From assembly GCF_054482525.1 (NCBI RefSeq), contig NZ_CM137006.1: 64,000 nt of DNA; one strand, 5' to 3'. Made by a program: the position numbers. This document shows positions 60,001 through 64,000 of the stretch, in pieces; the first letter of the stretch is position 1, and each line of letters opens with the position of its first letter.

Positions 60001-63000
60001 TCTGAACCTCCTCCACCCCATAAATAAAAAGTCCGTAACCTCTTTCGAGATTACGGACTTCACCAACCTACCTAACAATTAGATTAATGCGTTGCTTCCG
60101 CCTTGTGCTTTTGTGCACTCTGGAATCCGTAAGTCAGCTCATTTTTCTCTTTATCCAGCGCGACGGTGACCTGACCGCCGTCCACCAGCGAACCAAACAG
60201 CAGTTCGTTGGCGAGCGGTTTTTTCAGGTTGTCCTGGATGACACGCGCCATCGGACGTGCGCCCATTGCCCGGTCGTAACCTTTCTCGGCCAGCCAGTTA
60301 CGCGCTTCCTGGCTCACTTCCAGAGAAACACCTTTCTGATCCAACTGAACCTGCAACTCGACGATGAATTTATCCACTACCTGATGGATCACGTCGGTGG
60401 AGAGATGATCGAACCAGATAATGTTGTCGAGACGGTTACGAAACTCCGGCGTAAAGATCTTCTTGATCTCTTCCATCGCATCGGTGCTGTTGTCCTGGTG
60501 GATAAGACCAATCGATTTACGCTCAGTTTCTCGTACCCCAGCGTTGGTGGTCATCACCAATACCACGTTACGGAAGTCCGCTTTGCGTCCGTTGTTATCG
60601 GTCAGCGTACCGTTGTCCATCACCTGCAACAGAATATTGAACACGTCCGGGTGCGCTTTCTCGATTTCGTCCAGCAGCAGCACCGCATGTGGATGCTTGA
60701 TGACCGCATCAGTCAGCAAACCGCCCTGATCAAAACCAACGTATCCCGGAGGCGCACCAATCAGACGGCTGACGGTATGGCGTTCCATATACTCGGACAT
60801 ATCAAAGCGCAGAAGCTCAATGCCCAAAGCTTTCGAAAGCTGTACCGTCACCTCTGTTTTCCCGACCCCGGTAGGGCCTGCAAACAGGAACGAACCGACC
60901 GGTTTATGTTCGTGACCTAAACCTGCACGCGCCATCTTAATGGCTTCAGTCAGCGCCTCAATGGCTTTATCCTGACCGAAGACCAGCATTTTCAGGCGAT
61001 CGCCGAGGTTTTTCAGGGTATCGCGGTCACTCTGAGAAACACTCTTCTCTGGAATGCGTGCAATACGGGCCACCACGGACTCAATATCCGCCACATTAAC
61101 GGTTTTCTTGCGTTTGCTTACCGGCATCAGGCGTGCGCGAGCGCCCGCTTCGTCGATAACGTCAATGGCTTTATCCGGCAGATGACGATCGTTAATGTAT
61201 TTCACCGCCAGCTCTACCGCTGCACGCACCGCTTTTGCGGTATAACGCACGTCGTGGTGCGCTTCATACTTCGGTTTCAGGCCATTGATGATTTGAACAG
61301 TTTCTTCGATCGACGGTTCAGTAATATCAATTTTCTGGAAGCGACGCGCCAGAGCACGGTCTTTCTCGAAAATGTTGCTGAACTCCTGATAGGTTGTCGA
61401 ACCAATTACGCGAATTTTACCGCTGGAGAGCAGCGGTTTGATCAGGTTAGCCGCATCGACCTGGCCACCAGAGGCTGCACCCGCACCGATAATGGTGTGG
61501 ATCTCATCAATAAACAGGATGCTGTTAGTATCCTGCTCCAGCTGCTTGAGCAACGCTTTAAAACGTTTTTCAAAGTCGCCGCGATATTTAGTGCCCGCTA
61601 ACAGAGAACCGATATCGAGAGAGTAAATCGTACAGTCAGCCATCACTTCCGGCACATCGCCCTGAACAATTCGCCAGGCAAGACCTTCCGCAATCGCGGT
61701 TTTACCGACACCAGATTCCCCCACCAGCAGCGGGTTGTTTTTACGGCGACGGCAGAGAACCTGAATAGCACGCTCCAGCTCCTTCTCACGACCAATCAGT
61801 GGGTCGATTCCGCCCACACGCGCAAGCTGATTCAGGTTCGTCGTGAAATTCTCCATACGTTCCTCCCCACCAGCTTGTTCTTCGCTGTTTGGCTGGCTGC
61901 CAGGATCAGAAGACTGTGTCGGCTCGTCTTTACGCGTGCCATGAGAGATAAAGTTCACCACATCGAGACGGCTGACTTCATGTTTACGCAACAGATATGC
62001 CGCCTGCGACTCCTGTTCGCTAAAGATAGCGACCAGAACGTTTGCACCGGTAACCTCATTGCGACCGGAGGACTGGACATGGAAGACCGCACGTTGCAGT
62101 ACACGCTGAAAACTCAGCGTCGGCTGTGTGTCGCGCTCCTCTTCACTGGCAGGCAGAACGGGTGTGGTTTGTTCAATAAAGGCTTCCAGTTCCTGACGGA
62201 GCGCAACCAAATCCACAGAACACGCTTCCAGCGCCTCCCGGGCAGATGGGTTACTGAGCAGCGCCAGTAACAAGTGCTCGACGGTCATAAACTCATGACG
62301 GTGCTCGCGCGCTCTGGCGAAAGCCATATTTAAACTGAGTTCCAGTTCTTGATTGAGCATAGGCACCTCCCCCAATTTTTATGCCTGCATTCAGGCTTTT
62401 TCTAGCGTACACAGCAATGGATGCTCATTCTCCCTCGCGTACTTGTTCACCATCGCCACTTTGGTTTCTGCAACCTCGGCGGTAAAGACTCCGCAAATGG
62501 CCTTCCCCTGGTAGTGAACAGCGAGCATCAATTGCGTTGCACGTTCTACATCATAAGAAAAGAATTTTTGTAACACGTCAATAACAAACTCCATCGGAGT
62601 GTAATCATCATTGACTAATATCACTTTATACATAGATGGCGGTTTTAGCGCGTCGCGAACTTTTTCTTCCGCCAGTTGATCAAAGTCCAGCCAGTCGTTC
62701 GTTTTACCCATTGTCAGTTATCATCTTCGGTTACGGTTATCGGCAGAACGCCCTGCCGCTGACAAGAGCTTATTTGCCTGACCAATCTACTCCACATGAT
62801 AGATAACTATCATTTATATCATTTAGTTAATTAGTCTTTATTTTTCATTATGTTGCAAATAACAAGCCCGTCAAAAACAGTGATATTAACTACACCATTA
62901 ACTACACCGCTTCACGAACAATATCGAACAACCGCGAACAAAGATCAACACGCTTTAATCATTATCATTTTCCGGCTATCCGTCATGAAGCTGGTGGATG

Positions 63001-64000
63001 ATCTGCGTGGTGATTTCCACCATTCAGAGCAGGGGCGGTCATCATGACCATGCCATAACAAAAACCCCATATTCGTGGTTTTTCTGTGTCGGGGCTATTC
63101 TGCTGTTGCCGTGCTGGTGGATATTCTCCGGTATGCGGCTCCCCATATCGGCATCAGGCCCACCAGCGTGAAGCGTTTTTCATTTTTCGCGGGTATAAAA
63201 AATCGATGGGGCTGGCAGTCCTGAAGACGTCAGGGTACGGAGATTTGACCCGCCCCTCCCTGTGCATGAGCACAATAAGTAACCGAAGGCGGAATTCCGC
63301 CCTCGGTACTTACATATGAGAAACGATATTTCTTCCACCGATACCCTTTATTTGGGTATTGCGAGTAAGCCCCAAAATCTGGGTGTTACTCTTACTACCC
63401 AAACTACGGGTAGTTTCCGTAGTTTCATGGTCGAGTTGCAAATCTGCAACTCACCCACCAGCCAACGCAATTTTGCGTTATCGGGAATATCAGCAAGTTA
63501 CCGCCGCAGTCGTTCCGGCTTCTTCCACTGGTAAGTATTTTTCGCGCTCTCCCTCCGTTGTTGAGAACGGCGACGGTATGCCAGCAACTCAAGGACTCTG
63601 GTTCGTATGTTGCGCATATCCACGCCGTTAAGCTCAATACCATCACGGCGCATCACCTCAGCAACAACACGCGCGTAATTTTCAGCGGTGACTGTATCCG
63701 GCTGCGCGGCCTGTTCGTCAGCCAACTGGCTGATTCCACCAGCACAGCGGATTAATCGCAGTATTTCAGATTCGGTCATTATCATGCCTGTTTTGCGACC
63801 TCATTCACTACGTCATTTTTTACCATCCGGCTGATAATCTGATTACACAAATCGTCAATAATTGACTGCACTCTGTTTACTGCCATCGGTTTAAGCCCGG
63901 CATCACGTGCCAGAATATTGGGGAGTTTTGCCAGTTCCTCGCTTACGATTTCCCCCCATATAGCCATCTCTTTTCGCACATCATCGGCGGGTATGAGTTG

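Follow-up and report, generated by a model that had tools for sequence, protein, structure and literature searches.

The segment at positions 62796–64000 of the window, by which we mean the whole 64,000-nt stretch of contig NZ_CM137006.1 (assembly GCF_054482525.1), is very probably the distal end of a phage satellite, a PICI (phage-inducible chromosomal island) of about 11 kb inserted at the 3' end of yljB, and the two small open reading frames (ORFs) within it very probably belong to the last genes of its late operon. The seeming loss of cspD is explained by nothing more unusual than a mobile element of a known kind, inserted where such elements have been reported before. The site is known for PICIs, but the capsid/TerS module carried here is a different one, matched to mEp460-like lambdoid phages. 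The window illustrates that E. coli PICIs exchange capsid/TerS modules according to the helper phage, while backbone and end remain constant. The anatomy, homologies, boundaries and distribution of the island are read directly from the genomes compared, and its helper-dependent induction, replication and packaging are what these sequences would predict. No more than about 1.2 kb of the island falls within the window; its remainder is deduced from two matching genomes, L001 and L076, which share the junction with the window at 99–100% identity and in which the full island content was read.

Insertion of Foreign DNA Upstream of clpS

Both clpA (60084–62375) and clpS (62391–62711) lie on the minus strand of the window, and the stretch from 62712 to 64000 contains no CspD-like ORF. 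The first-pass annotation had stated that in K-12 cspD lies divergently upstream of clpS, which is correct, the small yljB sitting in between, and it took cspD to be missing here. The K-12 position is indeed vacant, but the gene is not lost: yljB and cspD stand intact about 11 kb farther on, behind the island, in every examined genome with the same junction (L001, L076). The annotation had also described two overlapping small ORFs of 95 and 65 aa. The longer one exists (63498–63785, minus strand) and overlaps the upstream stop codon in an ATGA, but its conserved form has 93 aa. The shorter one (63782–63979, GTG start) is an artefact of the window edge, as its frame is open through base 64000 and encodes the C-terminal portion of a TerS homologue (DUF1441, 161 aa), for which the matching genomes have a 486-bp gene. 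The original observation is therefore partly confirmed, being real, though in part an edge artefact.

The whole 1289 bp beside clpS recurs at 99.3–99.9% identity among the matches listed, and of 5426 complete E. coli genomes 83 contain at least 80% of this stretch. Since the stretch recurs in other E. coli genomes, the foreign DNA is no chance feature, and since only these 83 genomes carry it, the ORFs are not core genes. The annotation had set against its own view a cspD homologue just past the window together with core-gene status of the ORFs; the former was found, but the latter was not. The element to which the ORFs belong is a phage satellite (PICI) and not a prophage.

The first 85 bp to the right of clpS (62712–62795, minus strand) are the native clpS upstream region, kept between clpS and the insertion point, and collinearity with the K-12 empty site (99.8%) extends to 62817. 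This empty site aligns with both island flanks with an overlap of 22 bp, and the same comparison places attB over the 3' end of yljB and gives an island length of ~10.99 kb in the matching genomes. The clpS-side copy of the 22-bp att core, ATGATAGATAACTATCATTTAT (62796–62817), forms the left island boundary in window orientation, while the second copy lies at 31076–31097 of L001, beside int and yljB. The cspD–clpS interval is a PICI attC, listed with EcCIIHE3034 and EcCI18098 in Table S1 of PMC6092414 (Fillol-Salom et al. 2018), where its core is printed as ATGATAGTTAT; that this dedicated site is not used by prophages is taken from the same table. ARAGORN detected no tRNA or tmRNA anywhere in the window, which rules out either as the integration target; the target is the yljB–clpS spacer. 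A tyrosine integrase would have inserted the island into the 22-bp site at the yljB 3' end, 85 bp upstream of clpS, and besides the duplicated att core such an integrase is encoded at one end of the island, off the window (L001 29671–30909; PF00589 plus arm-binding domain).

The Late Genes and a Conserved Structured Element

The 3' part of the small-terminase gene, 72 codons plus the stop, occupies 63782–64000 (minus strand), open to the window edge, and the gene extends about 267 bp past it. Its product matches the DUF1441 profile PF07278 (E=1e-35; 122.9 bits, the curated cut-off being 35.1) as well as the phrog_141 'terminase small subunit' profile (E=7e-57), and is 65–71% identical to the TerS proteins of mEp460, Ayreon, phi458 and 606R10, so that the phage character earlier ascribed to the ORFs is borne out. 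Identity to the 606R10 protein is 71% over 150 of the 161 residues, and divergence is confined to the last 11. Directly upstream of terS and off the window, L001 21582–21786 is homologous (73–78% identity) to the cos region of these phages, with the alignment spanning the genome-end junction of mEp460. A PDB sequence search with both TerS and the 93-aa protein returned no match better than E = 0.16.

The next gene (63498–63779, minus strand; a start at the first ATG, 63785, would give 95 aa) encodes a 93-aa protein of phrog_1561 (E=1e-52), for which Pfam and NCBIfam gave no match. Because nearly all homologues of the 95-aa ORF begin at the second ATG (MTE..., 93 aa), and because the RefSeq annotation likewise has 93 aa, the start that produces the ATGA coupling may not be the one used. 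The protein is 78–83% identical across islands with unrelated packaging modules, and among the E. coli PICIs and cf-PICIs examined its gene always comes last, a position for which we found no earlier description. Its AlphaFold model consists of three helices (pLDDT 74); the predicted fold found no match in the PDB (E>1), and a faint ankyrin-like resemblance (a DARPin match, repeat proteins) is not supported. Two candidate identities were rejected. RgdR (ECs1581; the 'rdgR' accessory gene) is characterized by 99 aa, a conserved core and a position upstream of the primase, a description that the 99-aa DUF4222 protein fits and the 93-aa protein does not, and Rpp is the 144-aa product of c1503, which lies just upstream of the 93-aa gene in EcCICFT073.

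This conserved, structured non-coding element (63272–63497, minus strand) lies downstream of the 93-aa gene, to which it is adjacent in 57 of 58 IMG/VR loci, and has a near-invariant core at about 63335–63457. Its minimum free energy is -99.7 kcal/mol against -58.3 for shuffled sequences (z = -9.4). Of 5426 E. coli genomes, 1057 contain the element, and its structured core was found in 60 IMG/VR contigs, while an exact-pattern scan for the core across one genome per species gave 0 matches. Rfam returned no family for the element or for anything right of clpS, only chance-level matches (E>2). Variation in the stems takes the form of GC<->GU exchanges on the minus strand only, at four sites, and two compensatory pair changes occur in the first hairpin; the strand evidence consists of the four GC<->GU sites only, and the element could work as DNA rather than RNA. 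An intrinsic-terminator-like hairpin (63282–63307, minus strand), with an 11-pair stem of which 8 pairs are GC, followed by a T-rich tail, stands at the end of the terS/93-aa operon. The element would provide the late operon with its 3' UTR and terminator, and it may be a binding target of the basic, helical 93-aa protein. No earlier description of this very stable conserved element ending in a terminator was found.

A Second cos Region in the Island End

An 83-bp copy of a cos region of the SfV/SfII/ST64B/phiP27/720R4 type, which belongs to HNH-dependent phages, was located by phage alignment at 63178–63260 (minus strand). Compared with the HNH–terS intergenic cos or genome termini of 20 phage records, the copy is 80–93% identical (E down to 7e-26), the values being about 89–94% for the closest phages and about 80% for phiP27. 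Opposite the 10-nt cos site annotated in phiP27, the window has GGGGCTGGCA (63208–63217, minus strand), in which one base differs from 720R4, and to judge from this change the second cos may not be cut. When 16 distinct copies from other islands were aligned with that of the window, the cohesive-end substitution relative to the phage versions proved to be the majority form among island copies (11/16), which suggests something other than random decay. Neither EcCIIHE3034 nor EcCICFT073 has a cos of the SfV/P27 type, and the island contains no cognate HNH or P27-type terminase, so that a helper of this type would have to supply the cleavage. The idea that cf-PICI terminases have the second cos as their cognate site was also considered and rejected, as these are only 30–36% identical to the terminases of the cos-bearing phages. 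We found no earlier description of an 83-bp SfV/SfII/ST64B/phiP27-type cos copy in an island end.

Past the second cos would follow the integrase arm sites and then the att core. The non-coding arm at 62818–63177 is 96.8% identical to the end of EcCIIHE3034 and includes a tandem ATTAACTACACC pair (62885–62908) and CGAACA repeats (about 62913–62945). The tandem pair is also found just upstream of int in the same orientation (L001 30933–30956), giving 4 matches where 0.14 were expected. Plus-strand ORFs at 62850–63171 were rejected as genes and are probably non-genic, their frames changing between islands, as seen in EcCIIHE3034.

Gene Content and Classification of the Island

The island was assessed as a PICI of enterobacterial type A, PICIs being defined by five core components (PMC10085698). 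In the matching genomes the island encodes, besides the integrase, a 69-aa helix-turn-helix protein AlpA (PF05930, E=2.9e-16), an RgdR-like DUF4222 protein, a primase-replicase of the P4 family (TIGR01613, with D5_N, DUF5906 and Pox_D5 domains), SSB, a ClpP-protease/major-capsid (MCP) fusion (NF045540, 905 bits), the DUF1441 TerS and the 93-aa protein, together with Icd-like and ash genes. No annotated gene of the island is left unaccounted for, and annotation and profile searches in L001 and L076 revealed no tail, lysis, portal or TerL genes. The capsid fusion is 57% identical to its counterpart in phage 606R10.

One might regard the island as a defective or domesticated PICI remnant that is no longer mobile, its cos copies and small genes being relics. 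We consider this unlikely, though it is the alternative that deserves most weight. With the resident prophages of their hosts, the related EcCIIHE3034 and EcCI18098 yielded no more than about 100 transductants/ml (PMC6092414), ash is a pseudogene in one carrier, strain APEC E16002, and the second cos bears the substitution described above. However, all core genes are intact in both L001 and L076, and the low transfer reported in 2018 may merely reflect the absence of the right helper, while a substitution that is the majority island form is unlike random decay. Moreover, the near-identity of the 1289 bp, among the matches listed, spans isolates from chicken, pig, sheep, dog, river water and humans with varied serotypes, which suggests recent spread.

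Very improbable is the view that the island is not a classical PICI but a satellite of the P4 type or a capsid-forming PICI (cf-PICI). The P4-family primase, AlpA, ash and Icd-like genes are reminiscent of P4, and the island shares with cf-PICIs an encoded capsid protein, the 93-aa gene and the structured element, but neither psu, sid and delta homologues (annotation and profiles) nor portal, TerL, HNH and head-tail connectors are found among its genes. Least probable of all is a degraded lambdoid prophage from which terminase and capsid genes survived a deletion of the rest: although TerS and the capsid fusion are clearly homologous to lambdoid genes, the integrase, AlpA, Icd-like, DUF4222 and primase genes form a satellite rather than a lambdoid backbone, the capsid–terS order is the reverse of that in phages, neither TerL nor portal is encoded, one and the same compact layout of 11 kb is repeated with three different packaging modules, and the precise att duplication marks integration of a whole unit.

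Relationship to Known Satellites

Among classical PICIs, EcCIIHE3034 is close at both ends: it shares the attachment site, its integrase/att region is 96.8% identical, its backbone order is alike, it has a terS homologue, and its 93-aa protein is 78% identical. It differs in carrying a lambda-E-type capsid protein, a decoration protein and another TerS, whereas the window island has the ClpP-protease/capsid fusion and the DUF1441 TerS, and it lacks both the structured-element core and the SfV/P27-type cos that are present here. EcCI18098 is likened to the window island by its published site only, the same attC according to PMC6092414. In EcCICFT073, the prototype with Rpp (PMC6092414, PMC6739421), the order int, AlpA, Icd-like, DUF4222 (RgdR), primase, SSB, capsid module, redirection gene and 93-aa gene is the same as here, and both islands have more than one cos site. 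Yet EcCICFT073 is integrated between ycfD and phoQ, its redirection slot holds Rpp (c1503) where the window island has a full TerS homologue, and its cos sites are lambda/phi80-like, with neither a structured element nor a P27-type cos.

Like the window island, the cf-PICIs (such as EcCIEDL933; bioRxiv 10.1101/2022.09.08.507074) have a primase/SSB backbone, end in the 93-aa gene (82% identical) and contain the structured core; in some copies the distal end also holds the SfV/P27-type cos. A mutant in the EcCIEDL933 gene called 'hypothetical 1792' shows poor transfer. They encode capsid, protease, portal, connectors, HNH, TerS and TerL, in contrast to the capsid fusion and TerS only of the window island. 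A like logic operates in SaPI TerS-S and in the cos mimicry of SaPIbov5 and P4, where a satellite TerS or a copied helper cos diverts the packaging motor; the SaPI and P4 sequences are unrelated, and the window island combines both devices, which point to two different phage lineages.

Proposed Packaging Route

Upon induction of an mEp460-like helper, AlpA would switch the island on, and the island would then excise and replicate with its own primase. Its TerS may redirect the helper large terminase to the island's own cos upstream of terS, either alone, as in SaPIs, or mixed with the helper TerS, as with Rpp; either way, island DNA would be packaged into helper-derived particles, and the island capsid/protease protein probably alters capsid assembly. 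The second signal beyond the terminator, which is of another type and copied from SfV/ST64B/phiP27-type phages, may permit packaging by that phage lineage through simple cos mimicry.

We tentatively suggest that these parts form an undescribed, widely shared satellite module, in which the universal 93-aa protein and the structured RNA/DNA element are joined, in some islands and among them this one, by the captured SfV/ST64B/phiP27-type cos; the module might support piracy of two helpers, with the cohesive-end change possibly adaptive. If so, a second helper lineage, unrelated to the first, could likewise package a PICI whose TerS and capsid are tuned to mEp460-like phages. The 93-aa gene, structured element and second cos could bear on the choice of helpers by such islands and on a widening of their range.

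The insertion also has a possible consequence for the host, in that clpS–clpA are parted by the island from yljB and from any promoter upstream of yljB, and ClpS/ClpA expression in carrier strains could be altered. A promoter-like site, TTGACG-16-CATAAT, is directed toward clpS at 62847–62874 (minus strand); this is a weak call, the consensus scan having found one such site where 2.1 were expected.

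Boundaries of the Island and Displacement of cspD

In K-12, the gene order is macB, cspD (divergent), yljB, clpS and clpA, in agreement with the layout given in the first-pass annotation. In the window, clpA (60084–62375) and clpS (62391–62711) lie on the minus strand, and an ORF check bore out the earlier remark that no CspD-like ORF is present in 62712–64000. The loss of cspD read from this is, however, only apparent. In NZ_CP026723, the genome nearest to the window across its last 10 kb, the layout is the same as in strain APEC E16002 and an intact cspD comes after the island; cspD has thus been displaced, not lost. 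The boundaries were obtained by aligning the K-12 empty site to the APEC E16002 locus (L001), which has the whole 1289 bp with one mismatch. The alignment consists of two collinear blocks whose 22-bp overlap is the att core, ATGATA(G/A)ATAACTATCAT(C/T)TAT. The clpS-side copy is at 62796–62817, and the second lies about 10.99 kb away, beside the integrase gene and yljB. The attB site overlaps the final bases of yljB, 85 bp upstream of the clpS start codon. A tandem ATTAACTACACC pair at 62885–62908 is repeated, with unchanged orientation, immediately before int at the opposite island end (4 matches observed, 0.14 expected), and the distribution of these putative sites is the pattern of integrase arm sites. 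Since the insertion isolates clpS-clpA from yljB and from all sequence farther upstream, clpS may need transcription from the island for its expression.

Gene Content and Relation to Published PICIs

Starting at the cspD end, the island carries genes for a tyrosine integrase with an arm-binding domain and for an AlpA-family regulator (PF05930). Small YlcI-, ash- and Icd-like genes come next, then those for a 99-aa DUF4222 protein, a P4-family primase, SSB and a fused ClpP-like prohead protease/major capsid protein; a DUF1441 protein and a 93-aa protein are encoded last. Tail, lysis, portal and large-terminase genes are absent. The island has the five core components by which enterobacterial PICIs are defined (PMC10085698). 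An element of known type at a known site explains the finding: Fillol-Salom et al. 2018 (PMC6092414) already list EcCIIHE3034 (NC_017628.1 920272–930825) and EcCI18098 at cspD-clpS in their Table S1, and both encode TerS according to the text of that paper. EcCIIHE3034 resembles the window island in its integrase/att region (96.8%), backbone, clpS-side end (96.8%) and last gene, but in its packaging module the capsid is of the lambda-E type, a decoration protein is present and TerS is a different one. In the prototype EcCICFT073, the gene order is the same and the 93-aa gene is also last, whereas Rpp (c1503) sits where the window island has TerS. As backbone and order are shared with both elements while the packaging modules differ, the window island is a further member of a known family with a different helper-matching module. 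The DUF4222 protein (L001 27123–27422, outside the window) agrees with what has been published on RgdR (ECs1581/C1493), which regulates type III secretion and motility, in its size, its place upstream of the primase and its motif at residues 7–12.

The phage-like character first attributed to the small ORFs was rightly perceived, as the DUF1441 protein has a hit to phrog_141 'terminase small subunit' at E=7e-57. Its identity to TerS of mEp460, Ayreon, phi458 and 606R10, all lambdoid cos phages, is 65–71%, with only the last 11 residues differing, and the ClpP/capsid fusion is 57% identical to its 606R10 counterpart. Outside the window, the 200 bp upstream of the island terS are 73–78% identical to phage sequence across the mEp460 genome ends (cos region). 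By analogy with TerS of SaPIs and Rpp of E. coli, we infer that the DUF1441 protein would divert the large terminase of the helper to the cos site of the island itself. Two copies of one segment flank the island capsid gene (L001 21700–21783 and 24245–24316, outside the window); they are homologous to sequence about 120–190 bp upstream of the mEp460 cos cut site, and may represent a region controlling the late operon or a scar left when modules were exchanged.

Second cos and Structured Element

The non-coding part of the island end spans 680 bp, in which four features stand out, the one nearest to the att core being the tandem pair described above. It also contains a promoter-like site, TTGACG-16-CATAAT (62847–62874, minus strand; consensus match only), directed at clpS. 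The segment 63178–63260 matches the cos region of several phages with E values as low as 7e-26: identity is about 89–94% for SfII, SfV, SfI, ST64B, 118970_sal3 and 720R4 and about 80% for phiP27. In some phage records the matching sequence forms the genome termini themselves, and the annotated 10-nt phiP27 cos site aligns with 63208–63217. An alignment with sixteen distinct copies from other islands covers about 95 nt and has exactly the limits of the phage intergenic region. Within the cohesive-end site, one position carries C in the phages and in 5 island copies, but A in the window and 10 other copies. Because terminases of capsid-forming PICIs (cf-PICIs) are only 30–36% identical to those of SfV/ST64B/phiP27-type phages, this second cos has the look of a copy taken from phages rather than of a cognate site for satellite enzymes. 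It is lacking in both EcCIIHE3034 and EcCICFT073. The latter is known to carry two lambda-like cos sites, a precedent for several cos sites per PICI.

Beyond it lies a conserved structured element (63272–63497, minus strand) with a strong terminator-like hairpin (63307–63282, minus strand). The minus-strand sequence from the stop codon of the 93-aa gene to the terminator has a folding energy of -99.7 kcal/mol, versus -58.3 for shuffles (z = -9.4). Islands hardly differ in a core of about 120 nt, which is present in 1057 of 5426 E. coli genomes and in 60 IMG/VR contigs and has no Rfam match. Substitutions in the stems are few and, on the minus strand, all of the GC<->GU type, and two double changes preserve pairing in the variable first hairpin; this thin evidence favours an RNA read in the operon direction. 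The second hairpin (63433–63452) has GATC (a Dam site) at its loop centre in most islands, whereas the window copy reads GATTT. In some cf-PICIs (IMG/VR loci L017, L033, L042 and L057), the core is tandemly duplicated 434–436 nt apart, with the terminator and the SfV/P27-type cos after the second copy only; in L057, an IS interrupts that copy.

The Universal 93-aa Gene

The first-pass annotation described two coupled ORFs of 95 and 65 aa with an ATGA overlap. The former (63498–63785, minus strand) is real, but the latter is a window-edge artefact: its frame is open up to the final window base, and matching genomes show it to be the 3' portion of a gene of 486 bp, whose 161-aa product is the DUF1441 protein. 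The overlap may not mark the start used, since the second ATG is the start in almost all homologues of the 95-aa ORF (93 aa, MTE...). The 93-aa protein belongs to phrog_1561, to which no function is assigned there, and has no Pfam or NCBIfam match. At 90% identity its family falls into 959 clusters, each of them named 'hypothetical' or 'prophage protein'; at 50% identity only 37 representatives remain, and nearly all of these are short proteins of enterobacteria. The C-terminus Y-x-W-KKPERLRR is almost invariant, and the AlphaFold model (three helices, pLDDT 74) has no match in PDB. Identification with RgdR was rejected, the DUF4222 protein fitting that description, as was identification with Rpp, which in EcCICFT073 is c1503, separate from the 93-aa gene. 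The gene adjoins the structured element in 57 of 58 IMG/VR loci, whichever packaging module is present (lambda-E type, a ClpP fusion that may or may not be accompanied by DUF1441, or full cf-PICI). In the papers examined, this gene, the second cos and the structured element seem to be undescribed; they are the only part of the finding with some novelty. A related satellite in E. coli O157:H7 NE122 (L009 7740–18238) has the ClpP/capsid fusion and the 93-aa gene without an intact TerS; it lies directly beside a lambdoid prophage in which the large-terminase gene is missing its N-terminal part, resembling 'helper-embedded satellites' (bioRxiv 10.1101/2022.07.18.500453).

The Other Side of clpA

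On this side, APEC E16002 has the I-F cas operon, serW and infA; the window lacks them at this position, and no tRNA genes were found anywhere in its 64 kb. On the far side of clpA (56180–59965), only two type I-F CRISPR repeats (Rfam CRISPR-DR4, 59783–59870) are found, followed by RtT-like sequences, a second tyrosine integrase (58184–59386, minus strand) and IS1-bearing island DNA; with the PICI on the clpS side, clpS-clpA is thus flanked by two mobile elements.
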